Below, in pieces: positions 1,538 to 21,501 of a DNA stretch of 64,000 bases (position 1 is the stretch's first letter; every line of letters starts with the position of its first letter). Made by a program: the position numbers and the translations under genes. The notes beneath the pieces were generated by a model, which was not told the origin of the DNA, ran no database searches, and saw nothing but the letters and a program-made list of their open reading frames with translations. The DNA is from Thermoplasmata archaeon (GTDB taxonomy: Archaea > Thermoplasmatota > Thermoplasmata > Lutacidiplasmatales > UBA184), in contig JAKIWV010000002.1 in the NCBI GenBank assembly GCA_022749815.1, forward strand, positions 194,478 to 258,477, written 5' to 3'.

Positions 1538-1548
1538 TCCCGAGTCGG

Positions 1549-2736: not shown

Positions 2737-2825
2737 GGCCGCGAGGTGCAGGACCCATATTTAGGCCGCGCGCCGACCTAGACGTATCGGCGAGGTTCTT
2801 TTGAGCCGGGGCCGGTCCCGCCGGC

Positions 2826-4957: not shown

Positions 4958-4963
4958 TCGTGG

Positions 4964-6085: not shown

Positions 6086-6109
6086 TCGTCGGTCCCAAGA
6101 ACGGGGTGC

Positions 6110-7195: not shown

Positions 7196-7360
7196 TGGAA
7201 TCCAGACAAATACACTTTAAGATAAACATTGTGTCGCGATTCGGGCGGGCAACCCCCGAGGAATCCCCCGGCGCGCCCGGGTGGGGGGCGGAGTTTCGCT
7301 GGACACGGGTCGGGGGTTCACGACAAAGAATATCTGCGGGAAGGCTCCGGGACCACGGGA

Positions 7361-7522
7361 GGGAGCATAGGCTAATCTGGCAGACCAGCGGGCTCCAGTC
7401 AGGTCTCCTGCGAGGGGGATCTTTGCATTGGGTCAGCGGAGGGACGCTTCGGCGTACCGATGACGAGTGACTGGAGCGCGCGGAGAGACCCGCATATCGG
7501 GGTTCAAATCCCCGTGCTCCCA
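7361..7522 (+). tRNA. tRNA-Trp (anticodon CCA) with an 89-nt intron (7399..7487) between positions 37 and 38; CCA not encoded
   Basis: The acceptor stem is a perfect 7-bp helix, GGGAGCA/TGCTCCC, with discriminator A. The D-loop (AATCTGGCA) has A14, G18, G19 and A21. The anticodon stem is GCGGG/CCCGC, perfect once the intron is removed. The anticodon loop reads CT-CCA-G followed by A38 from exon 2. The T-arm is CGGGG-TTCAAAT-CCCCG. An AT-rich box, AAAGAATATCT, lies about 25-30 nt upstream. Confidence 0.8.
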
Positions 7523-7823
7523 TTGAAAATGGGCGGCCAGACCCATCTCCGGGGGTCCTTCGGGGCCCCGGAGTTTAGTTTCTCCATAGGCAAACTTCGT
7601 GCGAGAAAGGGGTGCTTTTCGAGCGCAGGAGTCAAGGGAGTGGTGGCCGACGATTCTCTAGTGTCCGGCCGCCAGCTTGTCCGGCTCGTTCTAGAAGAAG
7701 GTCGGGCCTCGGTCGGCTATTGTTGTTTAGCCCTTTGGCCACCATTGTGCCTGCGATTCAATTGCCCCCGCGGTCCGAAGCAGTACCGGACTTTCGACTC
7801 GAGACTATCGAGTTCAGCAGCGG

Positions 7824-8261
7824 TCAACTTGTTTCGCTGACGCATGCATAGACCTTCGCACGCATCCGCATCGTCTGTGGGTCGAAAGTGCCCTCGAGGA
7901 TGCAGACGCTGTTGTTGAGCCACTTGTACCGCTCGTCTTCGGTTTCAAACAGTACCGAGAGAAGCTGCCGGCCCCCCGCCTCGGTAAACACGGTACGGCC
8001 TTGCAGCGAGACCAGAACGAGCGCGTCGTCGTGCGTCTTGATCAAGCCGTGCGCGTCGGGCAGCATCGCGCCATCGCTCCGCCGGCGAGGATGATTTGTC
8101 AGGCGAAGGGAGCCACGAAGCTTGTCACCCGTAACCGTTCCGTCCAGCTCGCCGTACCCTGCCCCGCCTTCATTTCCATAGGGCCTCACTAGGACAAACT
8201 TCTCGCCAAAGGAGGAGTCGCGATACGCCGCGTCAAGCTCACAGATCGGCTCCAGACGCAT
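7824..8261 (-). CDS. DUF3237-family protein (~145 aa)
   Basis: The pattern M.LEP...L.A.Y....G...G..Y.L.G.V.G..LRG......DW....DG...LD is typical of DUF3237. The likely start is MRLEPICELD. Confidence 0.5.
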   Translation of the reverse strand: MRLEPICELDAAYRDSSFGEKFVLVRPYGNEGGAGYGELDGTVTGDKLRGSLRLTNHPRRRSDGAMLPDAHGLIKTHDDALVLVSLQGRTVFTEAGGRQLLSVLFETEDERYKWLNNSVCILEGTFDPQTMRMRAKVYACVSETS

Positions 8262-8493
8262 AGTAGCACCGCCTGCCGGCGGAAAACCAGGCGTGAGTAA
8301 AGAACCTTCCGCACTATCCAAGTTGTCGGCCGTCGTACCCGAGTTCGCCGTCCCGCATAGGCTACTATGTCGGAGATCTACAAGGAGTTCGAAACGGGCC
8401 CCTAAGCGTTTTAAGAGAGCGACTGGCTTTTGCTGAACTTTTCCAAAGGAGGGGATTCTCTAGGGCCCCCCTGGCGTGCTTCAGCTACACCGC

Positions 8494-8523
8494 GAGGGTG
8501 CAATCGCCATTGCACCCTCGAAC
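8494..8523. repeat. Palindromic repeat family, copy P1: GAGGGTGCAAT-CGCC-ATTGCACCCTC + GAAC
   Basis: Perfect 11-nt inverted arms around a 4-nt spacer. It is intergenic, lying between the STAND gene 3' end and the DUF3237 gene. Confidence 0.7.
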
Positions 8524-8962
8524 CCGGTTACCTCACTGGGGCCGGAGAGCGGATCCATTTGCAACGGCTCACCCACCACAGCGGTCAGACATCGCAGGTT
8601 CCGAGGGCAGCCGCTCTTGGGGCGATCGGAGGAGGGGGAGGCATGTCGAAGCGGGCCCTCTGACTCGAGCCACGGTCAGGGTTCCTCCTTTCACCCATCC
8701 TCCCCCGTGGCCATCTCCACCCTCTCGCAGGACGCCATCTGTCTCCCTTGGATAGTTGTCGAGGGAGGAGTTGCGCCGCCTCTAGGGCGCCGCAGCGACG
8801 TAGGGGCCGACTTCGGAGGCTGCCTCCGAGGCCCGCCTCCCCATGGCTCCCTCCGGATCCGGCCCAGCGGGCCTGGCTCGGCGAGGGGCATAGCCGAGAA
8901 GGGGGGCGCCGAGCCCTCTCGGACGAGTGGGAGCAAGGGGCCCTCGCCACCGGGCGTATGAG

Positions 8963-11767
8963 TCAGCCCGAGATTTTGGACAGGAGCGCTCGCGTTTGGT
9001 CCAGGTCCGGGACGGCCGACATTTCCTCGAAGAGCTCCAATGCGTGCGACAGGGCGGCCCGCCCGCCCGGGCCGTCCCCGCCCTCGGCGAGGGCCCGGCC
9101 GACCTCGACCCAGGTGCGCGCCGTCTCGTACGTCCAACCGAGCCGGGACCACGTTCCGATGCATCGGTGCAGGAGGGGCACCGCCACGCTCGCTCGTCCC
9201 TCACGGACGAGGCACTCCGCTTTAGCGCGGTCGGAAAACGCGCGTATGTAGTCGGAATCAAAACGGTCGGCGAATTCCTGGAGAGGGCCCAGCAATGCCT
9301 GGGCCTGTTCGAGGTGTCCCTGTCGCACGGCCACCGACACGAAGAGCGCGAGGGCTTCGGGGTACAGCTCGGCGTACCAGCCCTCCGGGCCAGTCGCTAG
9401 GCAACAATCCCGCGCCGCACCGAACGCCTGCTCGGCGGCGGCGAACTCGTCCCGGAGGAGGAAGTGTCGACCCAGGTAGAGGTGGATCAGCGCCTCGAGG
9501 TACCACCTCGGTTCGGTCCGCATGAGGGCGAGGGCGGTCTCCAGCGACGGGCGGGCGCTCTCAGTCTGACCCAGCAGAGCCCCGGCCGCTCCATGACCGA
9601 ACAGCGCCTGGACCGGTTCCGGGACGCCGTGCACCGCCGCGAACCGGCGCAGTTCGTCGGCGCGCAGCACGACCTCGGTAAAGTGGCCCTGGCGCAAGAG
9701 ACCCAGCGGCTCGGCATACCCCCGCCACCAAGCTTCTATGTCGGCGGTACCGGTTCGTCGCGCGAGCTCGATCAGCTCGCCGGAGGCGTCCAAGGCGCGA
9801 GGGAGGTCCCCCTCCACGTGGTAGATCGCCGCCGCCTGGTAGGTCAGGGCCTCGATAACTAGGTCGGTGAGCCCGTGGTCCTCGGCGATCGCCTTCGCCT
9901 CCCGGACGAGTCGGAACGAGTCCCGGATCCGGCCTACAGGGAGCGACCGAGCCGAGATGAGCCGGGTGAGGACCTGACCGTGACGGTCCCCTTGGGCTTC
10001 CGCCAGCCGCAACGCCCGCTCCGCGTCTTCGCGGGCTGGTCCGACCCGACCCAGGACGTAGAGGAAGTTCGACCGCGCCACGAGCACCTGACCGAGGAGC
10101 GAGTCCTCCGGGCTTTCCCCCAGAAGCGCGGTCGCGCGCCGGAAGAGCGGCTCGGCGCGGTCCGGCGTGATATCGGCGTTGGTGCCCATCGCCGCGATGC
10201 ATCCGACGGCCGCGGCGAGGTCCCCGAGGCGTTGGAAGCCGTCGGCGGCTTCTTCGAAGAGGTCGAGACCCTTGCCCGCGTCCCCGACCCGGATCATCTG
10301 TTCTGCGAGGCGCGACTGGATGCGCCAGCGTTGCGAGCCCGCCGGTTCCCGGGAAAGCAGGTCGAGTGCCGCCCGGTAATGCTCGATTGCGTCGCGCCGC
10401 GCATAGATCTGGGCCGCGCGGTCCCCCGCCTTCATGCAGTACTCGAGGGCCCGAGCCGTGTCCCCGGATCGCAGGAAATGGTAGGCGAGGATCCCCGAGC
10501 GGTCGGACGAATCGCCCGGCGGACTCGATTCGAGGGCGAGGCCGATCCGGTGGTGGATCTCGCGCCGTCGCGCCAGAGGAACTTCGGCGTACAATGCTTC
10601 CTGGATCAGCGGGTGGGCGAACGTTCCGACGTCGTCTCCGGCCGGGCCCCGCACCACCTGGACGAGTCGCGCGCCTGCCGCGGCTTCGATCGCATCGAGG
10701 ACATCTTTCTCGCCACGGCCGCTAATCTGCGGGAGCAGCCGGACGTGGAACTCCGGCCCCTCCGCTGCGGCCGCAGCCAGCACCGTCCTGTGGTCCGTGC
10801 CGAGGCGTCCCAGACGTTGTTCGAGCACACTCTGGACGCTCGAGGGGACGCGGAGGGTTGGGACCGATCGTCCTTCCCAGCCATCCGCCGTGGGAAAGAT
10901 TGCCCCCGACTCGATCAGCGATTGGACGATCTCCTCGACGAAGAACGGGTTTCCGCCGGACTTCTCGTTGACGAGGCGGACGAACTCGGGGAGAGGGACG
11001 GCCTGGCGGAGCAGCTGGCCCACCAGGGCCGCCACCTCCGACCGGTCTAGTCGCGCGAGGTCGACCCGTGTGATGAGCTTGCTCCGCCCCAGCGTGAGCA
11101 CGAGCTCCTTCAGGGGCGGGCTCTGGTCAAGGTGGGTGTCCCGTGCAGATACCGCGATGAAGAGGGGGTTCGTCCGGGTCGCCGGTGCGATCGCCTGTAG
11201 GAGCTCTACCGACGATGCATCGGCCAGCGCAAGGTCGTCGATCGTGATCAACGCGCTCCCGGACCCGGCGATGGCGATGAACAGGTCGCACAGCTCACGC
11301 ACGAAGGAGTGGCCGTCCAATGGGTGCGCGCGCCAGTCCGGACTCGGGGTAAGCCAGACTTTGTCCGTAAGCTCCGGCAATAGCGCGAACACCGCATCCG
11401 CACAGGGGACCACCGTGGAACGCACCCTCCCCCGGGGTTGCTCTCTGACGAACTGCCGGAGGAGGTCGATCCACGGGGCATACGGCACGCCCCGCTCGAT
11501 TCCCTCGCACTGGGCCGACAGTTGGAGCATCCCTACGGTCGTGGCGACCCGGTGGAACTCGTCGATCAATCGAGTCTTGCCGATGCCGGACTCCCCGGTG
11601 AGGAGGAGCAACCGGCCCGATTCTTTGGTCGGACCGTCGACGAACGACTGCAGGGCCCCGAGCTCCGCCTTCCGGCCCACGAATGCGACCGTGGCGGCCC
11701 CAAGGCCCCCGGGCAGGCGTGGGTACAGAAGGCCCGGGTCTCGAGGGGCGACATCCGGGTCGCTCAC
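8963..11767 (-). CDS. STAND-class P-loop NTPase with C-terminal TPR-like helical repeats (934 aa); no effector or HTH domain recognised
   Basis: Walker A at ~aa 55 (LLLTGESGIGKTRL), Walker B-like (LITIDDLALAD), and a long alpha-helical repeat region beyond it. This is the AfsR/MalT/Avs-like NTPase class. Confidence 0.7.
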   Translation of the reverse strand: MSDPDVAPRDPGLLYPRLPGGLGAATVAFVGRKAELGALQSFVDGPTKESGRLLLLTGESGIGKTRLIDEFHRVATTVGMLQLSAQCEGIERGVPYAPWIDLLRQFVREQPRGRVRSTVVPCADAVFALLPELTDKVWLTPSPDWRAHPLDGHSFVRELCDLFIAIAGSGSALITIDDLALADASSVELLQAIAPATRTNPLFIAVSARDTHLDQSPPLKELVLTLGRSKLITRVDLARLDRSEVAALVGQLLRQAVPLPEFVRLVNEKSGGNPFFVEEIVQSLIESGAIFPTADGWEGRSVPTLRVPSSVQSVLEQRLGRLGTDHRTVLAAAAAEGPEFHVRLLPQISGRGEKDVLDAIEAAAGARLVQVVRGPAGDDVGTFAHPLIQEALYAEVPLARRREIHHRIGLALESSPPGDSSDRSGILAYHFLRSGDTARALEYCMKAGDRAAQIYARRDAIEHYRAALDLLSREPAGSQRWRIQSRLAEQMIRVGDAGKGLDLFEEAADGFQRLGDLAAAVGCIAAMGTNADITPDRAEPLFRRATALLGESPEDSLLGQVLVARSNFLYVLGRVGPAREDAERALRLAEAQGDRHGQVLTRLISARSLPVGRIRDSFRLVREAKAIAEDHGLTDLVIEALTYQAAAIYHVEGDLPRALDASGELIELARRTGTADIEAWWRGYAEPLGLLRQGHFTEVVLRADELRRFAAVHGVPEPVQALFGHGAAGALLGQTESARPSLETALALMRTEPRWYLEALIHLYLGRHFLLRDEFAAAEQAFGAARDCCLATGPEGWYAELYPEALALFVSVAVRQGHLEQAQALLGPLQEFADRFDSDYIRAFSDRAKAECLVREGRASVAVPLLHRCIGTWSRLGWTYETARTWVEVGRALAEGGDGPGGRAALSHALELFEEMSAVPDLDQTRALLSKISG

Positions 11768-11843
11768 GTGAGCCGTCCGGGACGAGCACCGAGCGGGACG
11801 ACGGATGCCGCGCGCCCCAACCGGTCGCGCGGCGGAGCTACCC

Positions 11844-12470
11844 TCATTCGATCTCCTTCCGCGAGCCGTCGCTCGCTACGAACGCCCGCCAGCCGTCCGT
11901 GGAGTCGAGCTCGAGCTCGCCCTCGAACCGTCCGCTCCTCGTTCCGCGGTCGGTGGCGAACTCGACCAGGAGCTTGAACGGCCGCGTCGAGTGGTCGCTG
12001 GCCTCGAGGAGCCACTTCATCAGCTCTTCGTGGCGCGACCAATCGACCTCGACGAAGTGGCCCGGGAGCAGAGAGGGCTCGTAGGCCACCTCCTTCCCCG
12101 CCAAACGGGCCCGTAGCTCCTGGACCGGCTCGGGGGAGCAGTTCCTGAGGAATACGCGGTGGGAGGCCCGCAGTCGCGTCGGACGCGCCACATAGGCGGG
12201 CTCGAGTTCGTGGCGCTGCCGCTCCCCCACGGGCCAGACGTGCCGATAGAGCGAGGTCGGGCGGACCTTTGGGGGCGACCGGTACCCCTTCCGCCAGCGT
12301 TGGACTTGCCGCAGTCGGGCAGCAAAATTGGGAGTTTCGTTCTTCCAGTTGCCGTAGATAACCGGGGCGAGCGCCTCTAGCTCCCGCTCGACCTGGCGGG
12401 CCGACCACTCGGAATGCGCCCGCTCGACGTTTTGGGTGAGCTGCTCGAGCTCCTTCCGAGGTCGGGTCAT
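11844..12470 (-). CDS. Hypothetical protein (208 aa) immediately upstream of, and co-oriented with, the STAND NTPase
   Basis: The reading frame has balanced composition (MTRPRKELEQL...). The overlapping listed ORF 11764..12603 is Arg/Gly-rich and likely a frame artefact. No family was recognised. Confidence 0.4.
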   Translation of the reverse strand: MTRPRKELEQLTQNVERAHSEWSARQVERELEALAPVIYGNWKNETPNFAARLRQVQRWRKGYRSPPKVRPTSLYRHVWPVGERQRHELEPAYVARPTRLRASHRVFLRNCSPEPVQELRARLAGKEVAYEPSLLPGHFVEVDWSRHEELMKWLLEASDHSTRPFKLLVEFATDRGTRSGRFEGELELDSTDGWRAFVASDGSRKEIE

Positions 12471-12718
12471 GCCGCGGCCCGCGACATCTGTCGGACCCCC
12501 GTGAAGGGGCGAACGGCGCCTGGGTCGATAAAGATGCGCGAATCCCCGACAACCGGGGCGGCACTTCAGCGTACAGAATCCCCACGGGTGAGGATGGCGG
12601 CACCGCGATTCAGCCCCGGGGCATCGGGAACCGTCCGGAGGGGGCCGGCCAGGCCCGAGGGGCCTCTCTCCAAGGGGTGCCACAGTGCCACTTTCTCCCC
12701 TCCAGGACGAACCGGCTG

Positions 12719-12973
12719 ATGACCGCCTCCTTAGAAATTGCGTTCTCGGAAGCGGTCGAACGGTGGGAGACGCATCGCAAGGCATGCGCGCGGTGCGCGA
12801 CGAGCCAGCGGGGGGAGTGCGAGACGGGTGACCATTTGTTGGCCGCCGCGGCCGAAGCTCGAGGACGCTGGTTGCTCCGCCTCACACGGTCCGTGGGCGT
12901 AAGGATCGCGGTCCGTCCTCCTGCCCTTCCGACGAGCAAGCCCGAGTCCCGGCCAAGGAAGAGGACCAGGTAG
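12719..12973 (+). CDS. Small zf-HC2-like protein, paralog 1 (ERWETHRKACARC)
   Basis: Shares the motif E-W-[DE]-x-H-x3-C-x2-C-x7-C-x2-G with two downstream paralogs. The start and the C-terminal boundary are uncertain. Confidence 0.35.
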   Translation: MTASLEIAFSEAVERWETHRKACARCATSQRGECETGDHLLAAAAEARGRWLLRLTRSVGVRIAVRPPALPTSKPESRPRKRTR

Positions 12974-13261
12974 CAGTGGGCCGGGCGCGTTCTGCATGGG
13001 AGGAGGGGGAACGGGACCGTTCGCCCCGAACCGATCTCTGGGGGGATCGCTTCGTACGGTGAGTCGCGTTTCGCTCAGCCATCATTCCACCCGCTCTCGG
13101 CCGCCCCCGTGCACACGGAGTACGAGGTTCGTCGTTGTCAGATCCACAACTGCGCCGCGACAAGTGTCGAGGGTCCGTGGGGCGGCACCTCGCGAGGCCG
13201 GCCGAGGAAGCCGACGGGGGAGCGCGACACGCGAGCCGAAACCTCGGACATATGGAGAAGC

Positions 13262-13594
13262 ATGAAGTTCCCAAGCGGCACAGACGAGCATAGCTCCCAG
13301 CCCTGCCCAAACGACTTGCCGAAGTACCGTCGATGCGAGAACCGACTACACGGGACCCTGGCCGAATGGGACCGTCACATCGCATTGTGCGGTGAATGTC
13401 TGTCCTACGGCGTACACCTTTGCGCTATGGGCCAGAGCTTATCCCTTGAGGTCGGACGTGCACGAGCACGCTTGGACATGGTCGCAGCCAAGCTCACGCG
13501 GACTCGGCCCCGCCCGGAGTCGGTGGTCCCCGAACTCCCGATTCGAAGCCCACCCTCTCCTTCCCTGTCCGCGGTGGTTTCGGGGACTCCGTGA
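13262..13594 (+). CDS. Small zf-HC2-like protein, paralog 2 (AEWDRHIALCGECLSYGVHLCAMG)
   Basis: It has the H-x3-C-x2-C zinc-binding motif with an upstream Cys. It is paralogous to 15958..16365 and 12719..12973. Confidence 0.45.
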   Translation: MKFPSGTDEHSSQPCPNDLPKYRRCENRLHGTLAEWDRHIALCGECLSYGVHLCAMGQSLSLEVGRARARLDMVAAKLTRTRPRPESVVPELPIRSPPSPSLSAVVSGTP

Positions 13595-13818
13595 CGCCGA
13601 AATGGTTTCACGGGGGGTCGGAGGCGGCACCCTATCTTCGTGGTGGTGGTAACGTCGGTCCTCCTGCCGGCCTCCGCAGCCGCCGGCACACCTCCCACGT
13701 TGGGGAGGGAGTCCAGAGTCTTCACTCACGTTCGCCTTACGATGAAACCGAACCTGGCCCCGAGCGTGACCCTCGGAGGTGCAAACGACTTCTTCCCTTG
13801 AAAGAACAGTCCGTGCCC

Positions 13819-15588
13819 ATGGAAACGGGGCGAGCGGCCCGGCTCCCATGCTGGAATCCCCCCTCAATCCCGGGACGTTCGTCACGGCCTATTAACCTCC
13901 CGAGGTCGCCGTCCGGAAAACGACCCGGACGGTCGCGGACTTGGCCCCAACAGCGCAGCCAGATCGCTTCCATTGCGGTCGTGACTCTCGCTCTCATCGT
14001 AAGTTTCGGCATGTTGCCTTGGGCCCGGGCGCCCGCCCCACTCTCCTCCACTAGTGGAACACCTGGAATCCACACTCTAGATTTGAGCATCCCCATGGTC
14101 AACACGTCGTTTGCTGGCTATGTGCTGCTCAACCCCAACCATGGCTCGGTGCAGGCGATTTCCGATACGTTCACGCAACCGAGAGGGACTTGCAGCTCGG
14201 GCGAGTATGTTGTGAACTCAAACGCGTCCTATCCAAATGACCAGAATGTGTGGATCGGGCCGGGCCTTTACGACGGCACTCTCGACTTTTCAAATTTCGG
14301 GGCCTATCAAATGGGAACCGAAACGCTCTGCCAGTCGCTTACTCAGGACCCCGTCTACATTCCGTTCTACTACTCGATAGCGATCCGGCCGTCGGACCCG
14401 CCGAACCCCGACAACGTCATGCACGCCTTCACGGGGCTCGTGGTGAGTGCCGGCGACTCGATCAAGTCCACGATACTTTCGTCGTCCGGAACTCTGACAT
14501 TCACGTTTACGGACCTGACAAGCAATCGGACCGTAACGGCTGAGGTCAGTGCATCGGAGTTCAAGCCAAACGGAGCGTTCTGCATCCTGAACGTCTTTGG
14601 AAATCTGGCAAGATTCTCCAGGTTCACCCAGTCCTGCGAGCCCAACGTCGGTGGCGAGACGGCCGGTATTGGTGCCTTTACGACTCCGAACATCGCCCTT
14701 CGGGCAGTCATGGTCAACACCACTGGTGCGATCCAAGCCGCCGTGTCCCCACTATCTCCCGACGGAGCGACATTTTCGACCCGCTTTGTTTTCTCATCCC
14801 CCCTCGGCCCACTGTTCCCGCCCGGTCAAGATACGTTGTTTCGCGCTTCCCACGCCGCCGGTTATCTTCTCCTGAACAGCTACCACGGATCCGTGGTCTC
14901 GGCCTCCGACTCGTACGTTCAGCCTAAGGCCTCGTGCTTCGCAGGAGAGGCGTACGAAAACGCCACCGGGCACTATCCGGGCGACCAGGACGCTTTCGTG
15001 GGGGCAGGGCTGTACGCGGGCAGCACCGACTCCTCCAGCTACAGATTCTATCAGGTCGGCACTGAAGCGTTGTGTCAGCTCTTCTTCCAGAATCCGGTCT
15101 ACATCCCGTACTACCTCGTGACGGTCGTGACTCCGACCGACCCCACCGGGGACTTCTCCATCGTCGTCTTACCGAATTTGACTGTGAACCCCGGCGACGT
15201 CATTCATTCTGCGGTGAAAGTATCGGGAGCAACTTCAGGTGACGACCCGCAGAATAACAGGGTGACGTTCATCCTGGCCGACCTGACGACAGGCATGACC
15301 GCCCGAGTGACCATTTCCGCCGCTGGGTTCGCCCCGAACGGCGCGGCCTGTGTCATGGAACCTATCTTCCTCACCCCGAAGTTTACGCCAATCGCACAGT
15401 CCTGTAAGGCAACTGTCGACGGGGTGAACGATGGGTTTGGAGACTTCGCCCCTCCGAACCTTCTACTCCGGTTCGACCTCCGCAGCAACCTCAACTCGAC
15501 GGTGGTGCAGGCGCGCACTTCCGGTTTTATCGCCGACGGCGGGGACTTTTCCATCACCTGGATCACTTCGGAGCCGCTTGGGTTCTAG
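13819..15588 (+). CDS. Secreted or membrane-anchored protein with two tandem ~240-aa domains resembling the peptidase G1 (eqolisin/A4) concanavalin-like fold
   Basis: N-terminal TM/signal segment (IASIAVVTLALIVSFGML). There is an internal duplication: GYVLLNPNHGSV...YQMGTE...CILNV versus GYLLLNSYHGSV...YQVGTE...CVMEP. The QxGTE and I-V-E-like positions resemble the G1 catalytic Gln/Glu dyad. Many N-glycosylation sequons are present. Confidence 0.45.
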   Translation: METGRAARLPCWNPPSIPGRSSRPINLPRSPSGKRPGRSRTWPQQRSQIASIAVVTLALIVSFGMLPWARAPAPLSSTSGTPGIHTLDLSIPMVNTSFAGYVLLNPNHGSVQAISDTFTQPRGTCSSGEYVVNSNASYPNDQNVWIGPGLYDGTLDFSNFGAYQMGTETLCQSLTQDPVYIPFYYSIAIRPSDPPNPDNVMHAFTGLVVSAGDSIKSTILSSSGTLTFTFTDLTSNRTVTAEVSASEFKPNGAFCILNVFGNLARFSRFTQSCEPNVGGETAGIGAFTTPNIALRAVMVNTTGAIQAAVSPLSPDGATFSTRFVFSSPLGPLFPPGQDTLFRASHAAGYLLLNSYHGSVVSASDSYVQPKASCFAGEAYENATGHYPGDQDAFVGAGLYAGSTDSSSYRFYQVGTEALCQLFFQNPVYIPYYLVTVVTPTDPTGDFSIVVLPNLTVNPGDVIHSAVKVSGATSGDDPQNNRVTFILADLTTGMTARVTISAAGFAPNGAACVMEPIFLTPKFTPIAQSCKATVDGVNDGFGDFAPPNLLLRFDLRSNLNSTVVQARTSGFIADGGDFSITWITSEPLGF

Positions 15589-15674
15589 ATTCTATCCCTT
15601 TCACGCCCCTGGCCGCCTAAATTCTCAGGCACTGCCCGGGCCCCACGCGGGACCCAATCCCTCTGCATCAGGCA

Positions 15675-15715
15675 GGGGTGGCTGCAGCCACTATTGCACC
15701 CTCGAACGCCGCAAC
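15675..15715. repeat. Palindromic repeat family, copy P2 (GGGGTG-GCTGCAGCC-ACTATTGCACCCTCGAACGCCGCAAC)
   Basis: It shares the right half, ATTGCACCCTCGAAC, with P1, and carries an inserted GCTGCAGC palindrome. It is intergenic. Confidence 0.55.
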
Positions 15716-15957
15716 CAGCCTGGAACCGGGAAGAGCATCCAATCGCAACGAGATGGGTGGCCTGAGGGCAGAGTCGATTCCCTAGCGGACCGGCGGCTGG
15801 ACGGTCCACTCGAGGTCCGCAGAGGGGGTCCGAAGGCCCGGCGCGACATCTGTCGCGTCATTCACAGACGTGTACTTTCGCCTTCCTCGATGGAGCGCTC
15901 TCCAGGCGCGACAGTCCGACCGAAACATCGGCACATAGACTAACCGAGGGAACCGCG

Positions 15958-16365
15958 ATGACGACACAACTATCGACCGCCCTCTCGGCCATCCAAGAGC
16001 ACAACGCCCGCGACCAGTCTGGAAGCTTCAAACCGGGACGAGCCAACGTGGCGCAAGCCCGTTTTGAACGCGTCCTTTGCGAGTGGGACTCCCACATAGC
16101 CCGGTGCACAGAGTGTCTGTCTTACGGCGAACACCTGTGCATGTTGGGTGGTTTTCTTGTTGAAGATGTCGGGAGCGCGCGAGATCGTCTGGTCGGTCTG
16201 GCGGTAGAGCTCCCCCCCCCGAGCGCGGATGTATCGCAGCTTACCGGAGCACGAGCTCTTGGGGCGATCGGATACATGCTCTATGGGCCCCGAGTCTATG
16301 CCGAGAACCGAACTACCCGTGCGCCCTTATCGGATTGCGACGCTTCGAAGCCCAGTCCCAGTTGA
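15958..16365 (+). CDS. Small zf-HC2-like protein, paralog 3 (CEWDSHIARCTECLSYGEHLCMLGG)
   Basis: It has the H-x3-C-x2-C motif and is clearly paralogous to 13262..13594. Confidence 0.45.
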   Translation: MTTQLSTALSAIQEHNARDQSGSFKPGRANVAQARFERVLCEWDSHIARCTECLSYGEHLCMLGGFLVEDVGSARDRLVGLAVELPPPSADVSQLTGARALGAIGYMLYGPRVYAENRTTRAPLSDCDASKPSPS

Positions 16366-16567
16366 GCCGCTCAGGTCGACGAGCAGGAGACGGCAGGCGG
16401 GTGGCGCGGGCCAGGAAAAGGGCCCCTTGTTCCACGCTCGGAATAGCGTTAAATCGATCGTGGCTAACCTCGGGCTCGGACGAGCCGACGCGTTCACGTC
16501 CAATCATCGGAAGGTCCGCACGCGCTGCGGGGGTGCCCTTTAACCGACTCGCAGAAGTGAGCGAGAC

Positions 16568-17023
16568 ATGGCGGAGCGGAAACAGGCAAAGCCGGGCGCG
16601 CAGAAGTCAGTTAGCGGATTCACGGAAGAGGAGCGAGCCGCGATGAAGGAAACCCTCCAAGAGCGGAAGGCGCAGCGTGCCGGCAAGGCAGACGGGGAAC
16701 GCGACGTGCTCGCGAAGATCGCCGCGATGCTGGCGCCGGATCGCGTCATGGCCGAACGGCTCCATGCACTCATCAAAGCCAGCGCGCCCGCCCTCTCACC
16801 GAAGACCTGGTACGGGATGCCCGCCTATGCCAACAAGGATGGCCAGATCGTCTGCTTCTTTCAGGACGCCAAGAAGTTCAAGACGCGGTATGCCACGCTC
16901 GGCTTCAGTGACAAGGCGAACCTCGACGAGGGTCACATGTGGCCGACCGGTTTCGCGCTCAAGGAACTGACTGCCACCGAAGAAACCAAGATTCTCGCGC
17001 TCGTAAAGAAGGCTGTGAGCTGA
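16568..17023 (+). CDS. DUF1801 (YdhG-like) domain protein
   Basis: The [15 protein letters not shown]...KTRYATLGF pattern is typical of DUF1801. Confidence 0.55.
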
Positions 17024-17185
17024 GCGCCGTGCATCGCTCAGACCCGTAAGCTACGTCTTGATTCCTAAGCAGGAACGCGCTGTCCGAAACCCCCTCCGGC
17101 GGACCGTTCCGGGCCGGCTCGCATCGTGTGGTTTACCCCCGTGGGGGTACTCTCAAAGTGCTGACCTCCGACCTGCCACTCAACG

Positions 17186-17860
17186 ATGAAGAAGCTCCGA
17201 AGCTTGCCTTCCGAGGCGATGTCTACTGACTGGGGATCGGTACTTACAGAGGTGGTGGACCGGATTGACCATCCCCTCAGACGGGCCAAGGTCGATTGGT
17301 CGCTTGCCGGCTCCGCCGCCACCGCAATCCAAGGCTGCGAGATTGTTCCGCGGGATCTCGATATTCTCTTGAAGAAGGCCGACGGAGTGGACGCGTTGGC
17401 GAACCTCATGCACGAGTACGCGCCTCATACATGCGACGCTATGATGGGATCCGAATCATGGGTTTCCTCTCAGGATACTCCGTTCGCTGACGAACGGGAT
17501 CCTGAGGGCTTCCTCTGGCACTGGGGGCGTTGGTTGGTTGGAGGGTTCAAGGTCGAAGGAGCATACATCGTCGCGCGCGATGGTGCGCAGGGTGGCGAGC
17601 CGGGAATCTGGGAGAACGGGCCGGAGATCTGGACGCTCCATCGAGTGGTCGAGTTCGGCGGGCATCGAATCCGGGTGCCCCCGCTCGAAGTTCAACTTGC
17701 AACCTGCGCTCGCCGAGGTCTATCAGATCGCGTTGAGGCGATCATCGAGGCCCTTCAACGCGACGGCGTGAATCGTAAGCTCCTCGAGCGGAGCCTCTCG
17801 GATCCGCAGGTCCACGCCTTGCTCAATCGTTCCTTGAACCGCCGGGCAGGTCAGACGTAA
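17186..17860 (+). CDS. Putative nucleotidyltransferase-fold protein
   Basis: A GS-x9-DLDIL motif (LAGSAATAIQGCEIVPRDLDILL) resembles the Pol-beta superfamily NTase signature. A 16-nt perfect palindrome, TACCCCCGTGGGGGTA, lies 33 nt upstream. Confidence 0.35.
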   Translation: MKKLRSLPSEAMSTDWGSVLTEVVDRIDHPLRRAKVDWSLAGSAATAIQGCEIVPRDLDILLKKADGVDALANLMHEYAPHTCDAMMGSESWVSSQDTPFADERDPEGFLWHWGRWLVGGFKVEGAYIVARDGAQGGEPGIWENGPEIWTLHRVVEFGGHRIRVPPLEVQLATCARRGLSDRVEAIIEALQRDGVNRKLLERSLSDPQVHALLNRSLNRRAGQT

Positions 17861-18194
17861 ACTGAAAGTGGCACTGCGACGAATCCAAGCGGTTCAGTCA
17901 CGACGTGAGGGTCGGGTCAAACGACACTTCATACCCCCACGAGGGGGCTTGAGTCCCCCCGCAAGGGGCTCCTTGTGTCGCATTGGGACCCAATCGATGC
18001 GGTCAGGGACGACGACCCTTTCGCGCACATGGGGTTGCGCTCGATGGGGTACCGTCGTCTCTCCGGGAGGACCCCGACGATCCTTGGAATGTCGGCGAGC
18101 GGCCTTCGCCGCGCATGAGCATTCGAGCCGCTCGAGCGGCTAAGCACGACCGATTTTGGTGAACGCCTCCTCTCTCGAAGAAATGGGATTGGTT

Positions 18195-18234
18195 GCCCAC
18201 AACACGGGGTGGGAACCCGTGCTCCCATTGCCCT
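18195..18234 (+). repeat. tRNA-Trp 3'-end-like direct repeat, copy 2 (GCCCACAACACGGGGTGGGAACCCGTGCTCCCATTGCCCT)
   Basis: It contains CGGGGT...CCCGTGCTCCCATTG, identical to the tRNA-Trp T-stem plus acceptor 3' strand plus 3 nt at 7498..7525, but with a different loop. It is about 85% identical to copy 3 at 20600..20640. Confidence 0.6.
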
Positions 18235-18364
18235 CCCCCACGTCGTCGCGCAAGCTCTCGACGATGTGGGCACCTAAGTGGGCAGCCTTGCGTCGCTGAA
18301 CGTGGGAACCCGATTCACCGATGGTGCACAACGGCTTTCTTGAACCCTAGCGTCGACCCGGCCG

Positions 18365-20224
18365 ATGAAAGAGCCGACGCCGCCCGCGGTCGATGACGAG
18401 CTCGAGGGGAAGATTGAGGCGATCGCTCGCATCGGAGCCTGCTACCATCCGACGATCGCCCCCGACGGCAGTGCGATTGCCTTTGTCTCGGACCTGAGCG
18501 GTTCCCCTCAAGTGTGGAAAGTCTCGGCGAAGGGCGGTTGGCCCGAGCAGCTCACCGCATTCGACGACCCGGTCCTTGGGGTGACTTGGTCTCCGAGCGG
18601 CGAGTGGATAGCGTTCTCGCTCGCTCCTGGGGGAGGAATGAACGGGCAAATCTGCCTCGTTCGGCCAGATGGGATGGGGCTAAGGCGACTGACCAAGGGG
18701 GGCCCGACGAACAACTGGCTCAATTGTTGGTCTCGAGACGGGCGACTTCTAGGATACTCCACGAACGAAAGCGACCCCTCACGGCTGGAGTGTGTCGCTA
18801 TGGAAATCCAGACGGGGGAATTGAAGGAGCTCGGTCACACTCCAGGAACCGGAGACGTTGTCGATTTCGCGCCGGATGGGAAGACCGCCCTCACCCTGGT
18901 CGACCCCCAGCGAGGTGATTCGAATGTCTACCTCGTCGACCTTTCCACCGGCAAGGCGAATCTGCTGACGCCACATGACGGAACCGCGAACATCAAACGC
19001 GCTCGCTTCGCTGCGGATAGTTCAACGATTTATCTATCCTGCAACCTCGGCTCGGATTTTATCCACTTCGCGCGATTGAAGCTCGGCCCCCGCCATACGC
19101 CGGGAGCCTTGGAAGTGCTCGCAGCGCGAGCCGACGCCGACTTGGAGTGGTTCGACGTGGGGGAAGACGGGCAAAGAGCGGCGCTGTTTTGGAATGTGGC
19201 GGGCCGTTGCGAAATGGACTTTGTCGACCTGAAATCCGGGAAGCTCACCAAGGGACCCGCTCTGCCAGGGGAAACTATTGACGGTCCGGTCTTCACCCGC
19301 GACGGCCAGACCCTGGTGTCGTCCTTCAGCGGTGCCACGTTACCGTGGAACGTGTGGGCGCTATACCCTGGCAGCCGCTCGTTCGAACAACTGACGCGGG
19401 CTCCCCATGCCGGCGTCCGCCTGGAGGAGCTGGTCCGCCCTGTGCTGCTCCAATTCAAGGGCGAAGACGGGCTGCCGTTATCGGGATGGCTCTACCGGCC
19501 GCGTGGATTCTCCTCCGCCATACCGGTCGTGATCAGCTTCCACGGCGGACCGGAGAGTCAGGAACGGCCGTACATCGACGCCACCTACCAGGCTCTGCTG
19601 ATTCAAGGAATCGGGGTTTTCGCGCCGAACGTCCGAGGGTCCTCCGGTTTCGGCAAGTCTTTCCTCAACCTCGATAACGGCCCACTCCGCGTGAATGCGG
19701 TTCTAGACATCGGGGCGTGCGTTCGGGCCGTCGTCGACGCTGGGGTGGCGGATCCCGCCCGAATTGGGGCGATGGGAGGGTCTTACGGCGGTTACATGAC
19801 CATGGCGGCGTTGACCGAGTTCCCCGACCTGTTCGCCGCCGGCGCGGACTTGTTTGGAATCGTCAATTTCGAAACGTTTTTCGCTCACAGCGAACCCTGG
19901 ATGGGCGCGGTCTCTAAAGCGGAGTACGGAGACCCCGAAACCCAGCGGGACCTGCTACGTGCACTATCTCCCATTCACAAAATTGACCGGGTGAGGGCTC
20001 CCACCCTGGTTCTCCACGGGGCAAATGATACGAACGTCCCGATAGTAGAAGCTCAGCAGGTGGTGGCCGAGCTCCGGAAACACAAGGTCCCGGTCGAGCT
20101 CATCCTCTTTCCTGACGAGGGACACGGCTTCGTGAAGACTCCGAATCGAATTCGCGCTACCCGGGAGATAGTTCGTTGGTTTGTCCTTCACCTCAAGGGG
20201 ACCCGAGCAGGCGATCTCCAGTAG
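18365..20224 (+). CDS. S9-family serine peptidase (prolyl oligopeptidase/dipeptidyl-peptidase type) with an N-terminal beta-propeller
   Basis: TolB-like propeller repeats, a nucleophile elbow GGSYGGYMT, and Asp/His in LVLHGANDTNV and DEGHGF. Confidence 0.8.
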   Translation: MKEPTPPAVDDELEGKIEAIARIGACYHPTIAPDGSAIAFVSDLSGSPQVWKVSAKGGWPEQLTAFDDPVLGVTWSPSGEWIAFSLAPGGGMNGQICLVRPDGMGLRRLTKGGPTNNWLNCWSRDGRLLGYSTNESDPSRLECVAMEIQTGELKELGHTPGTGDVVDFAPDGKTALTLVDPQRGDSNVYLVDLSTGKANLLTPHDGTANIKRARFAADSSTIYLSCNLGSDFIHFARLKLGPRHTPGALEVLAARADADLEWFDVGEDGQRAALFWNVAGRCEMDFVDLKSGKLTKGPALPGETIDGPVFTRDGQTLVSSFSGATLPWNVWALYPGSRSFEQLTRAPHAGVRLEELVRPVLLQFKGEDGLPLSGWLYRPRGFSSAIPVVISFHGGPESQERPYIDATYQALLIQGIGVFAPNVRGSSGFGKSFLNLDNGPLRVNAVLDIGACVRAVVDAGVADPARIGAMGGSYGGYMTMAALTEFPDLFAAGADLFGIVNFETFFAHSEPWMGAVSKAEYGDPETQRDLLRALSPIHKIDRVRAPTLVLHGANDTNVPIVEAQQVVAELRKHKVPVELILFPDEGHGFVKTPNRIRATREIVRWFVLHLKGTRAGDLQ

Positions 20225-20599
20225 CAACTTCCAGATACGGTGCCTTTGGGGGAGAATTTCTCACTCCTTCGAGATGGATTGCCGCGGTGGCCAAGGTCGA
20301 ATGTTAACGCTAGGGAGGGCGCAGCTAGCTCAGCGGAAGAGGACCTGCAGAAACTCGGATGCCTCCTCCCGTCTTTCTTTACGGGGCCCGGGGCGGTCCC
20401 TCAAACGCTGGTGAAATCTGCAGGGCCAACCACTGGCGCGGTTCGGTTAGGCGATTCGGCCTCCCACCCTTTTCAGTGGTGCCCGGACTCGGCCGCGCAC
20501 TCCGATGCCGCTCCCCGAGAGACTTCGGAACGGACCGGGCTGACTCCGTTCGATTCGATTTTTCCGCGGCCGTTAATCGCCGGTAGTATGGTATCTGGA

Positions 20600-20640
20600 A
20601 CCCACAACCGAGGGTGGGAACCCGTGCTCCCAATTTCCCT
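20600..20640 (+). repeat. tRNA-Trp 3'-end-like direct repeat, copy 3 (ACCCACAACCGAGGGTGGGAACCCGTGCTCCCAATTTCCCT)
   Basis: It shares a 12-nt core, CCCGTGCTCCCA, with the tRNA-Trp 3' end and about 33 nt with copy 2. It is a direct repeat flanking the S9 peptidase gene. Confidence 0.6.
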
Positions 20641-20706
20641 TCTCGCGGGTACACCCCCTGAGGACCCCCTCGGAGTCGATCCCGCGGCGCTGGCTCAACC
20701 ATTAAG

Positions 20707-21501
20707 ATGAGCGGCCCTTCCAGCGCCCGCGGAGCGGGGTCCATGGGATCGAAAGGGAAGGTGCTTCTGATTGCTGGAGTAGGGGCCGGCCTCGGGAGTG
20801 CGGTGGTAAGTGTTCTCGCCGCCACCGGCGCGACGGTGGTCGGTCTAGCCCGGAGTCGGTCGTCGCTCGACCCCCTTCAGAAACTGGCGGAGAGCCGGGA
20901 CTGGTCCTTCCGCGCGGCCACCGCCGACCTGCGGGTTCAGGCCGAAGTGAATGCCGTCGTGGACGGAGTGACGGCCGAGTTTGGACGACTCGACGGCGTG
21001 TCCGTCAATGTGGGACACTGGATGACCGGTGATACGCTCCTGCACCGTACGACCGAGGAGGAGTGGTCGACCGGGTTGCACGACAATCTCGACGCCATCC
21101 ATCGCGTGGGTCGGGCGGTGCTGCCCCCGATGATTAAGCAGGGACACGGCTCGATGGTGCTGGTCTCCGCGGCCGAGAGAGTCCGCCGGCTGGGGAACCC
21201 CTCCTACTGTGCCGCCAAGGGGGGGATTCTCGACCTCACCCAAAAGCTCGCGGCCGACTACCGGCCGTACGGCATTCGCTTCAATGCGGTTCTCCCCGGG
21301 AATATGGAGCATCAGCTCGGGGCGCTCGACCCGCCGGGGGGTGGTGACCCGATCCCACTGCGGAACAACTCGGGCGTCGATGCTTGGCAGGTGGCTCGGG
21401 CCATCCGATACCTGCTCCTCGAGGACGGCGAGTGGATTACCGGAGCTCTCCTGACGGTGGATGGGGGACAATCAACGGGCGGCACCGAAGCCCCGGCGTA
21501 G
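20707..21501 (+). CDS. SDR-family NAD(P)-dependent oxidoreductase
   Basis: Rossmann motif AGVGAGLGSAV and the catalytic YCAAKGG (YxxxK). Confidence 0.75.
   Translation: MSGPSSARGAGSMGSKGKVLLIAGVGAGLGSAVVSVLAATGATVVGLARSRSSLDPLQKLAESRDWSFRAATADLRVQAEVNAVVDGVTAEFGRLDGVSVNVGHWMTGDTLLHRTTEEEWSTGLHDNLDAIHRVGRAVLPPMIKQGHGSMVLVSAAERVRRLGNPSYCAAKGGILDLTQKLAADYRPYGIRFNAVLPGNMEHQLGALDPPGGGDPIPLRNNSGVDAWQVARAIRYLLLEDGEWITGALLTVDGGQSTGGTEAPA

Follow-up and report, generated by a model that had tools for sequence, protein, structure and literature searches.

Introduction

The general rule of tRNA-targeted integration goes back to Reiter 1989 and Williams 2002, as they are cited in PMC9897764. Archaeal islands that lie between a complete tRNA gene and a partial copy of its 3' part include PYG1 of Pyrococcus yayanosii, with its 44-bp repeats of tRNA-Gln (PMC5126054, PMC9897764). 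Thaumarchaeal att sites have a median length of 17 bp, and both the formation of tandem arrays which re-use one att site and tandem arrays of casposons are on record (PMC6563490). Casposons make target duplications of 14-15 bp, some of them at tRNA 3' ends (PMC4779613). SSV-type integrase systems are known from archaeal viruses and plasmids (PMC5495485), as is an SSV1-like integrase (PMC6563490).

The locus described here lies in a stretch of 64,000 nucleotides from an uncultured Thermoplasmata archaeon, referred to below as the window. Like the tRNA-targeted archaeal elements, it has an intact tRNA gene at one border and, on the same strand, a direct repeat of the 3' part of that gene at the other, it holds accessory cargo which relatives lack, and at 10.7 kb its main segment is of typical size. 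Its core of 12-15 bp is inside the reported range of thaumarchaeal att sites. Unlike those elements, it has no detected integrase, either in the segment or at the site in the relatives examined, the similarity between its distal copies reaches into a conserved arm of 90-110 nt, and its target tRNA bears an 89-nt intron. It resembles SSV-type systems in that the host is an archaeon and the att core coincides with part of the downstream half of a tRNA gene, but no split integrase ORF was found, and a coding test failed.

The cis-mobilisable elements (CIMEs) of streptococcal ICEs are integrase-less derivatives flanked by att sites. Like them and like tandem arrays, the locus runs tRNA, segment, att copy, segment, att copy, with junctions kept and recombination genes absent, and two genomes have the A-type and B-type segments in a different order. 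It is unlike them in that no helper element or integrase was found and in that the segments of relatives are tiny (0.35-1.9 kb, zero to two genes). Arrays of integron gene cassettes have been reported in archaeal MAGs, and they too are made of short, often one-gene units. Each unit closes with a conserved recombination module, the units follow one another at a single site, and their content varies between genomes. Here, in contrast to integron cassettes, no IntI is adjacent, the module shares the tRNA 3'-end sequence and is conserved in sequence and not only in structure, and one unit is 10.7 kb long with many genes. A cassette array was rejected on two grounds: none of the loci examined has a recombinase next to the tRNA, and the orientation of the cargo is mixed.

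Copies of a tRNA tail that close blocks of accessory genes are the usual trace of mobile DNA entering a tRNA gene; the exception here is that the enzyme of insertion was not found. The locus is best read as a feature of known kind with one unusual conserved arm. Positions 7523-20635 are probably a tandem pair of integrase-less segments, integrated at the 3' end of a tRNA-Trp gene that has an intron.

The tRNA-Trp gene and the copies of its 3' end

The tRNA-Trp gene and the core copies are as follows.

7361-7522, + strand: tRNA-Trp(CCA) with an 89-nt intron in the anticodon loop, the candidate attachment target
7511-7525, + strand: core copy 1 (CCCGTGCTCCCATTG), comprising the 3' strand of the T stem, the 3' acceptor strand, the discriminator A and 3 more nt; left junction of the 10.7-kb segment
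18216-18230, + strand: core copy 2, which equals the tRNA end over 15 nt; junction where segment 1 ends on its right and segment 2 starts on its left
20621-20635, + strand: core copy 3 (CCCGTGCTCCCAATT), 12 nt identical to the tRNA and then an AATT variant; distal junction

The tRNA-Trp gene named in the initial annotation is real. It was missed by ARAGORN at default settings and by Rfam at the gathering threshold, but ARAGORN called it once introns were allowed, and the Rfam model RF00005, whose cut-off is 29 bits, scored it at 42 bits with permissive filters, the alignment containing an insertion of 93 nt. The gene has a 7-bp acceptor stem, a T arm with the loop TTCAAAT, a CCA anticodon and a discriminator base. 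The limits of the intron are about 7397-7487, ambiguous by 2 nt. Relatives of the clade have a tRNA-Trp which is 96-99% identical, intron included.

The recurrence of the tRNA 3' end at copies 2 and 3 was also borne out. The window has three exact matches to the core CCCGTGCTCCCA, each on the + strand, starting at 7511, 18216 and 20621. With one mismatch allowed the count rises to 6 (0.68 expected), which none of 100 shuffles attained. The tRNA and copy 2 have 15 of 15 nt in common (CCCGTGCTCCCATTG), and the tRNA and copy 3 have 12 of 12. The AATT which follows in copy 3 is what follows the tRNA in three relatives (L006, L008 and L031). Within one genome, the bases past the discriminator are common to the tRNA and its partner repeat, being ATTG for the tRNA and copy 2 of the window and AATT for the tRNA and repeat of L006.

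Copies 2 and 3 are not tRNAs themselves: no tRNA match was found in 17800-20800 even at E<=10, only their 3' 12-15 nt are identical to the tRNA, and their loop is TGGGAA. They had been described as direct repeats of about 40 nt, and copy 2 (18196-18234) and copy 3 (20601-20640) are indeed 87.5% identical across 40 nt, the sole significant DNA repeat within the island, but these stretches are really the ends of a longer module of 90-114 nt.

Layout of the segments

From left to right the locus consists of the tRNA, B, 10.7 kb of cargo, arm2 and core, A', an S9 peptidase gene, arm3 and core, and then the chromosome. The parts other than the tRNA and cores are as follows.

7526-7600, + strand: arm B, about 55-75 nt, directly 3' of the tRNA, with two hairpins (ATGGG..CCCAT; CTCCGGGG..CCCCGGAG)
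7601-18121, mixed strands: segment 1 cargo
18122-18215, + strand: DRL2 (arm2), left arm of copy 2; nhmmer match 18122-18229, E=4e-20
18231-18308, + strand: trailer A' (GCCCTCCCCCACG...), the native tRNA-Trp trailer of relatives, displaced here
18309-20468, + strand: S9 peptidase module, segment 2 cargo; gene 18365-20224 with 56 nt upstream and 244 nt downstream
20530-20620, + strand: DRL3 (arm3), left arm of copy 3; nhmmer match 20530-20634, E=4e-26

Arm B may be the left end (P' arm) of the 10.7-kb segment. One of its hairpins has a compensatory change in the relative L021, where it reads ATGGA..TCCAT.

Comparison with related genomes

The window was compared with 41 related Thermoplasmata loci. 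It is collinear with the closest relative, L006, from 4770 to 7522 at 84.7% DNA identity. The homology ends at 7522, the last base of the tRNA, and to the right of the tRNA it returns only at 20549-20639, around copy 3 (84.8%, about 92 nt). Between these two points L006 has a different 1.9 kb, encoding an 88-aa and a Kelch-like protein. The synteny thus breaks at the repeats, and the 41 loci contain no homologue of any ORF from 7.6-18.2 kb, which supports the view that the intervening DNA is accessory. The SDR gene to the right did not prove to be a conserved neighbour; the closest relative has a guanylate-cyclase-TPR gene instead.

The flanks of the repeats are reciprocally exchanged between the window and L021. 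The core of copy 2 with its A' flank matches the tRNA-Trp end and trailer of L021 at 27 of 29 nt, and the trailer of a further relative, L017, starts the same way, so that the flank of copy 2 is what attR would be, a displaced tRNA-Trp trailer. Conversely, the B which follows the tRNA in the window corresponds to the flank which in L021 follows the repeat and not the tRNA (83% over 53 nt, E=5e-8). The A-type segment ends alike in both genomes, starting on the left with the A trailer and closing on the right with an arm of the arm3 type (69% identity), but counted from the tRNA it is the second segment of the window and the first of L021. L021 also has a contiguous arm-core-B arrangement, which is the predicted attP sequence, sited in the chromosome. 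The exchange with L021, together with the break in synteny at the tRNA 3' end and its resumption at copy 3 in L006, supports the earlier proposal of att-like recombination junctions at tRNA-Trp.

The DNA between tRNA and repeat differs between all genomes. It encodes a 252-aa membrane protein, a 146-aa protein, a 107-aa protein, an acetyltransferase or surface beta-propeller proteins, or it is 340 nt with nothing in it. The comparison turned up neither a genome in which a cleanly empty site leads into the same right flank nor a free element bearing attP.

The conserved arm-core module

The initial annotation took copies 2 and 3 for relics. As random remnants they do not hold up, since they are the ends of a conserved, indel-free module which aligns over 90-114 nt without gaps in 10 copies. 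The module recurs 3' of tRNA-Trp in two Thermoplasmata clades, and it lies 0.35-1.9 kb downstream of the tRNA wherever the length of the contig allows judging. The core is within an invariant 21-mer, GGGTGGGAACCCGTGCTCCCA, which bears the inverted repeat TGGGA-N8-TCCCA. The exact 21-mer has 6 occurrences in JGI metagenome contigs: three are on the same strand as a tRNA-Trp and 0.9-1.5 kb downstream of it, two are on short contigs, and one is a chance match inside a 2400-aa ORF. DRL3 is orthologous to the arm of L006, and DRL2 is the most divergent member of the arm family. The arm may act as a protein-binding attP arm.

Such conservation could also mean that the module is a vertically inherited chromosomal element, either a small ncRNA or a regulatory site, whose 3' end came from a duplicated 3' exon of tRNA-Trp, while the variable DNA around it arose by processes other than att-site integration, for instance homologous recombination on conserved anchors, deletions or unrelated insertions. 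This is the most serious alternative, although we consider it rather unlikely. It would suit the gap-free alignment over 114 nt, which is kept even though identity between groups drops to 35-45%, the clustering of arms by host clade, and the position of the module in L021, at 340 nt from the tRNA with an empty interval. Arm3 and its L006 counterpart diverge at the genome-wide rate (85% identity), which also fits a chromosomal landmark and counts against the att reading, as does the base composition of the island: 7.5-20.6 kb is not distinct from the 40 kb to its right. That no integrase was found anywhere would suit this alternative as well.

Other observations speak against this alternative. 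The module has no match in Rfam, and RNAalifold on the 10 sequences gave a weak consensus of -13.8 kcal/mol, of which the covariation term is only -1.15, the best-conserved helices being invariant. The T-loop equivalent TGGGAA, read by eye, resembles neither the TTCAAAT of the tRNA nor the T-loop consensus, which makes a functional T arm improbable. Close relatives which keep the tRNA (L022, L023, L026 and L027, with UvrB 89% identical) lack the module, as do two outgroup clades, and it is therefore accessory rather than housekeeping; the window, for its part, has two copies. Vertical inheritance also leaves the reciprocal exchange of flanks and the core-exact breakpoints unexplained.

The arm was also considered as an Int(N) coding fragment running into the core, in which case the repeats would be left over from a provirus or plasmid whose integrase gene, of the SSV ('suicidal') type, runs across attP and is cut in two by integration. 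One forward frame does give a conserved-looking peptide (..FFRGRFTPTGWY.......GGNPCSHF) into the core, and in one subgroup third positions are slightly more variable (12, 11 and 18 sites at codon positions 1, 2 and 3). But stops interrupt the frame in 4 of the 10 copies, three-base periodicity is absent overall, and the peptide profile has no match among 5.8 billion proteins even at E<=10. The frame out of the tRNA stops immediately (CAT TGA), no tRNA copy is followed by an Int(C)-like ORF, and the upstream conservation passes through a 2-nt indel. This origin is very improbable and close to refuted.

Search for a recombinase

Scans of the island ORFs with Pfam, NCBIfam and PADLOC found no integrase or excisionase, in agreement with the first reading of the sequence, and none was found among the ten largest other ORFs tested in the rest of the window. 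Neither a tyrosine nor a serine recombinase encoded by the element was thus seen. The tRNA-to-repeat intervals of relatives have no integrase in precomputed Pfam annotations or translated ORFs, where several small ORFs are without a domain match or unscanned. No viral contigs were found which carry the core or the tRNA end.

The 15-bp direct repeat has the length of a casposon duplication, and could stem from a casposon or other transposon that duplicated its target site on entering the tRNA 3' end. Nothing else fits: Cas1, PolB and transposase are absent from the Pfam and NCBIfam scans, B and arm2 by eye are not inverted repeats and are not among the 25 longest inverted pairs listed, and the likeness of copies 2 and 3 extends 40-110 nt past any duplication. 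A casposon is accordingly a highly doubtful source. That a GC-rich 12-mer recurs by chance, or was duplicated locally by slippage unrelated to mobility, has a negligible likelihood even in a genome of 64% G+C with a C-rich core; it is refuted by the shuffles and by the same 21-mer and arm beside tRNA-Trp in independent genomes.

Proposed mechanism

Integration at tRNA-Trp remains the preferred reading; on it the gene is a hot spot, and the segments were moved by a recombinase encoded elsewhere or lost. The initial annotation spoke of a decayed or immobilised element. It was right that no integrase is recognisable, but a single decayed autonomous element appears less likely than integrase-less segments served in trans, because no integrase was detected at the site in the relatives examined and their intervals are only 0.35-1.9 kb.

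The enzyme would be a site-specific recombinase not encoded in the tested parts of the window, the tyrosine-integrase type being the likeliest. Strand exchange would take place inside the core of 12-15 bp, which matches exactly the last 12 nt of the tRNA and 3 nt more. In the incoming circle, the core would lie between the conserved left arm (about 90-110 nt) and a right arm. Integration would restore the tRNA 3' end from the core of the element and displace the former trailer to the distal junction. The perfect 15-nt pair of tRNA and copy 2 fits a 10.7-kb insertion that is the youngest and sits in front of an older one of 2.4 kb. Copy 3 would then be the older junction, from an ancestor common with L006.

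Cargo of the segments

The genes of segment 1 are as follows.

7824-8321, - strand: DUF3237
8963-11767, - strand: cyclase-less STAND ATPase (AAA_16/TPR)
11844-12785, - strand: unknown ORF
13109-13594 and 15958-16365, + strand: two Cys-rich paralogues
13591-15588, + strand: tandem Peptidase_A4 protein
16568-17023, + strand: DUF1801-like ORF
17186-17860, + strand: unknown ORF

Several of the names first given to these and neighbouring genes were supported by Pfam, namely STAND ATPase, Peptidase_A4, Peptidase_S9 and SDR. The DUF1801 match is weak, below the Pfam cut-off, and 'zf-HC2' and 'NTase' have no Pfam support. The S9 module of segment 2 is 82% identical in DNA to S9 loci elsewhere, in contexts without tRNA-Trp or the repeat; there it is an ordinary chromosomal gene, a further point against the att reading. 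The STAND protein of segment 1 is 30% identical over 900 aa to the protein encoded at 57102-60392.

Copies of the tRNA-Trp 3' end in the window

A tRNA-Trp(CCA) gene with an 89-nt intron in its anticodon loop lies at 7361-7522, as predicted by ARAGORN with introns allowed. The Rfam tRNA model recovers it under permissive filters (42 bits against a cut-off of 29 bits, with a 93-nt insertion). ARAGORN with default settings finds no tRNA in the window, nor does Rfam at its gathering thresholds give any match there; the anchor gene of the island is invisible to intron-blind tRNA finders. The type of intron and the names of homologous proteins point to an archaeon of the class Thermoplasmata.

The 12-nt core CCCGTGCTCCCA, which comprises the 3' strand of the T-stem, the 3' acceptor strand and the discriminator, occurs exactly three times in the window, always on the + strand: at 7511 within the tRNA (copy 1), at 18216 (copy 2) and at 20621 (copy 3). 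With one mismatch allowed there are 6 matches against 0.68 expected, a number reached in 0 of 100 shuffles. The tRNA and copy 2 have 15 nt in common, and copies 2 and 3, neither of which is a tRNA gene, agree at 35 of 40 nt and form the sole significant repeat within the island. The initial annotation had reported partial tRNA copies at 18.2 and 20.6 kb, with the two distal ones as direct repeats of about 40 nt, and both observations are confirmed. Its interpretation of these repeats as att sites left by integration is partly supported: breakpoints at the cores, exchanged flanks and turnover of cargo speak for it, but the locus encodes no detectable integrase. The locus is arranged as follows.

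Features of the tRNA-Trp locus, left to right
Left of the tRNA: conserved block of UvrB, MFS transporter, DUF7839, ABC ATPase, FecCD and periplasmic binding protein (PBP) genes (Pfam)
7361-7522: tRNA-Trp, with core copy 1 at 7511 (+ strand)
7526-7600: B, the arm directly after the tRNA
Between the tRNA and copy 2: DUF3237 protein (Pfam)
8963-11767, between the tRNA and copy 2: AAA_16/TPR STAND ATPase, 934 aa
Between the tRNA and copy 2, after the STAND ATPase: ORF without assigned function
13109-13594 and 15958-16365, between the tRNA and copy 2: two Cys-rich paralogues, 48% identity
Between the tRNA and copy 2: tandem Peptidase_A4 protein
Between the tRNA and copy 2: protein with a weak DUF1801 match
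Between the tRNA and copy 2, last: second ORF without assigned function
18122-18215: arm2, the left arm of copy 2, followed by the core at 18216 (+ strand)
18231-18308: A', the flank after copy 2
Between copies 2 and 3: S9 peptidase, a single gene
20530-20620: arm3, the left arm of copy 3, followed by the core at 20621 (+ strand)
Right of copy 3: SDR, DsbA and AhpC genes

Comparison with related loci

About 30 related Thermoplasmata loci were gathered via homologues of the tRNA-adjacent PBP, and six further loci came from JGI metagenome contigs scanned for the 21-mer common to copies 2 and 3. The closest relative (L006/L007, PBP 87% identical in protein) is collinear with window positions 4770-7522 at 84.7% DNA identity, and the homology ends with the final base of the tRNA. 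Right of this point, L006 resembles the window again only across 20549-20639 (84.8%), which is the copy 3 arm, the core and 7 nt. Its interval between tRNA and repeat is a different 1.9 kb, with an 88-aa ORF and a Kelch-like surface protein. The initial annotation had proposed looking in relatives for tRNA-Trp directly followed by the SDR gene; right of the repeat, L006 has a guanylate-cyclase-TPR gene instead. A search of genome contigs with the SDR protein gave only distant bacterial matches, and no identical protein turned up for it in an exact-sequence search.

The cargo differs from one relative to the next, and homologues of the 7.6-18.2 kb ORFs were found in none of the related loci compared.

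Cargo between tRNA-Trp and the repeat in other relatives
L011: membrane protein, 252 aa
L012: 146-aa protein
L015: 107-aa protein
L017: acetyltransferase
L021: none
L031: beta-propeller surface protein, 506 aa

Segment 2, the 2.4 kb between copies 2 and 3, holds one S9 peptidase gene, and the initial annotation had listed an S9 peptidase among the cargo. The stretch 18309-20468, which extends the gene by 56 nt upstream and by 244 nt downstream, has about 82% DNA identity with S9 loci of L043-L049, which sit in unrelated neighbourhoods without tRNA-Trp or the repeat. The pre-insertion state was sought through these S9 orthologues, and all contexts were unrelated, none with tRNA-Trp or the repeat.

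The flanks of the cores were informative in two more distant relatives, L021 and L017 (PBP 65-66% identical). There tRNA-Trp is followed by TTGCCCTCC..., which in the window is the sequence after copy 2; the core and copy 2 flank match the L021 tRNA end and trailer at 27 of 29 nt. Conversely, the two-hairpin arm B after the window tRNA matches the post-repeat, not the post-tRNA, sequence of L021 (83% over 53 nt, E=5e-8). The right-hand flanks of tRNA and repeat are therefore swapped with respect to L021, which is what recombination inside the shared core would produce. The window reads tRNA, B...arm2-core, A'...S9...arm3-core, and L021 reads tRNA, A...340 nt...arm-core, B.... Both genomes have the A-type segment with the same two ends, an A trailer to the left and an arm3-type arm (69% identical) to the right, at different places in the array.

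The bases after the discriminator pair up within a genome: ATTG follows both the window tRNA and copy 2, which suggests that these are the youngest pair. AATT follows the L006 tRNA, the L006 repeat and window copy 3, and from these bases copy 3 would be a junction inherited from an ancestor shared with L006.

A conserved arm on the core

The repeat is longer than the 40 nt first estimated. When ten copies were aligned, conservation ran well upstream of that stretch, and the 114 nt ending just past the core are gap-free in 10 of 10 copies. The last 21 nt of this arm-core module, GGGTGGGAACCCGTGCTCCCA, hardly vary and include the inverted repeat TGGGA-N8-TCCCA. Between groups, identity over the first 93 nt is as low as 34-47%.

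On every contig long enough to show it, the module follows tRNA-Trp on the same strand at a distance of 0.35-1.9 kb. Searching the 64-kb window and the loci with an nhmmer profile of the arm turned up no additional copy. Of the six JGI metagenome matches to the 21-mer, three are downstream of tRNA-Trp, two come from short contigs, and the last, within an ORF of 2400 aa, is a chance match. Four close relatives (L022, L023, L026 and L027; UvrB 89% identical) keep the tRNA and have no module within 7 kb. The module is absent from the outgroup clades L028-30 and L033-39, the latter with housekeeping genes directly after the tRNA, and present in a third outgroup clade (L011, L012, L015). In L031 the repeat is a variant whose left arm differs and whose right flank repeats the tRNA trailer over at least 55 nt. 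Three scans of viral contigs, with the core 21-mer, a degenerate core and the tRNA 3' end, gave no matches.

The arm does not look like coding sequence. A remnant of a split SSV-type integrase was rejected, as stop codons interrupt the in-frame peptide in 4 of 10 copies. Entropy is flat across codon positions (0.99, 1.02, 1.10), the three reverse frames look no better as coding than the forward frame, no ORF runs out of any tRNA copy, and a profile of the arm peptide found no match among 5.8 billion proteins even at E<=10. The arm matches no Rfam family, and from only ten sequences RNAalifold yields a weak consensus fold (-13.8 kcal/mol) whose conserved helices show no covariation. A casposon end was rejected, there being no Cas1 or PolB, and the segment ends are not mutual inverted repeats by eye.

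Probable integration at tRNA-Trp

Classical integration at a tRNA gene is the simplest account of the locus, and the island probably arose in this way. A circular element would carry the core with one arm on its left and another on its right, and a site-specific recombinase would swap strands inside the 12-15 bp that the element shares with the tRNA 3' end. The tRNA would be restored from the element's core and the old trailer would move behind the distal copy; one more event at this site would add the second segment. The attP arm and core sites of tyrosine recombinases have an arm of fixed length and an inverted repeat around an 8-nt spacer. The fixed length and inverted repeat of the arm described here resemble such a site, and it is a putative recombinase-binding arm.

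Domain scans of the island ORFs (Pfam, NCBIfam, PADLOC) found no integrase, excisionase, Cas1 or transposase, in agreement with the initial annotation, which had recognised no integrase or excisionase. The same domains are absent from ten larger ORFs of the remaining window, and no recombinase gene was detected at the tRNA-Trp site of any relative examined. This suggests either a recombinase acting in trans, encoded at another place in the genome or on a helper element, or loss of the enzyme everywhere.

The missing integrases, and a divergence of the module congruent with that of the hosts, speak for the main rival explanation, which holds that the module belongs to the chromosome and is passed on vertically, possibly as a small RNA that arose from the tRNA 3' exon. 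Vertical inheritance leaves unexplained the reciprocal exchange of flanks, the duplication within the window and the absence from close relatives, and seems quite improbable. A further reading, rather unlikely on present data, extends integration into a cassette-capture system acting in trans, for which tRNA-Trp would be the docking site in this Thermoplasmata lineage. Short segments, often of one gene, would be tagged by the roughly 100-nt arm and a 21-nt core mimicking the tRNA 3' end, and a recombinase encoded elsewhere would integrate and excise them and change their order; the system would be a counterpart of integrons or cis-mobilisable elements (CIMEs), anchored on an archaeal tRNA. It is based on the reversed order of A- and B-type segments in two genomes, the indel-free arm, the intervals with 0-2 unrelated genes, and the lack of a detectable integrase in all loci examined.

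Relation to known systems

Partial tRNA copies around accessory DNA are a well-known footprint of integration, well documented in archaeal islands, and in this respect the basic finding is ordinary. In Pyrococcus yayanosii, for instance, the island PYG1 spans 21.4 kb and is bounded by 44-bp repeats of tRNA-Gln (PMC9897764, PMC5126054). Re-use of one att site can form arrays of elements, and thaumarchaeal att sites are short, with a median of 17 bp (PMC6563490), which the core length in the window fits. The tRNA-Trp locus shares with tRNA-targeted islands the borders, the absence in relatives and the displaced trailer, but differs from them in having no detectable integrase. It works like an array of integrated elements and is best filed among integrase-less derivatives, which it shares with CIMEs as its nearest likeness. 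The likeness to integron cassettes is partial: short units each end in a conserved recombination module, but they sit at tRNA-Trp without an adjacent IntI, the cargo genes point in both directions and one unit has many of them.

What is less ordinary is a gap-free conserved arm on the core, at tRNA-Trp in two clades, with no detectable integrase nearby. The locus points to 13 kb of accessory DNA and a hot spot of recombination in an uncultured Thermoplasmata lineage from soil and peat, for which we know of no described mobile elements. If the arm is the handle of a trans-acting recombinase, it offers a sequence tag for finding that enzyme and the mobile gene pool.

Gene content of the island

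The initial annotation had listed an orphan STAND NTPase. The AAA_16/TPR STAND ATPase is present and is a cyclase-less paralogue of the guanylate-cyclase-ATPase-TPR protein at 57102-60392 in the window (30% identity over 900 aa), with a partial match to an NCBIfam TOMM kinase/cyclase model. Members of the guanylate-cyclase-AAA_16-TPR family adjoin the repeat module in L006 and L021 and lie near the S9 gene in L044-L049. The zf-HC2 and NTase labels have no Pfam support, and DUF1801 stands only as a weak match. The two Cys-rich proteins have the motif C-x-E-C-L-S-Y-G-x-H-L-C, with 48% identity over 67 aa, and belong to no Pfam family; repeat families suggest a third relative at the DNA level near 8.5 kb (8496-8630 against 15680-16272). 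Identity of the S9 peptidase falls to 58% with bacterial homologues (Ktedonobacteraceae, Acidobacteria), and a second, distant S9 paralogue (about 26% identity) lies at 32203-34137. A defence island was rejected, as PADLOC gave no matches on the island.

The tRNA gene and the extent of the variable region

The 89-nt intron of tRNA-Trp is 96-99% conserved across clade relatives. In other Euryarchaeota this intron encodes a box C/D guide RNA, and the sole hint of one here is a weak sR55 match at 7456-7474 (E=0.3). Two further ARAGORN intron-mode predictions were taken as false positives: a tRNA-Ala at 1258-1699 (346-nt intron) inside the UvrB/MFS coding region, and a tRNA-Thr at 32436-34774 (2247-nt intron) inside the second S9 peptidase coding region.

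On its 5' side, tRNA-Trp directly adjoins the PBP gene in the window (7196-7360), L006, L011, L012, L015 and L028. In six relatives (L008, L017, L021, L022, L026 and L031) a block of about 3.6 kb separates the two and encodes a second PBP, an asparagine-synthase-like protein and a diphthamide-synthase-like protein. This difference in spacing indicates that the 5' side is also an indel point. Two contigs of 157-158 kb from different samples, L008 (1-1280) and L009 (1-930), both stop about 1-1.3 kb past tRNA-Trp, just after a 211-aa protein without assigned function and a partial antitoxin-like ORF; such an assembly break fits strain-variable DNA.

GC-skew and codon-usage deviation of 7.5-20.6 kb had been suggested in the initial annotation as a check. 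GC3 is 0.62-0.82 for island genes, 0.65-0.87 for genes at 20-64 kb and 0.79-0.88 for the left conserved block, so the island is indistinguishable from the DNA to its right and composition does not delimit it. Within the island, 9-13 kb has 69% G+C against about 62% around it. GC3 averages about 0.74 over everything right of the tRNA (7500-64000), and the UvrB-to-PBP block (1-7200) alone is higher. In L022 and L026, homologues of genes at 34-37 kb and 41 kb follow tRNA-Trp at a distance of only 2.4-7 kb. Together with the step in composition, this suggests that the variable region may extend well beyond 20.6 kb.
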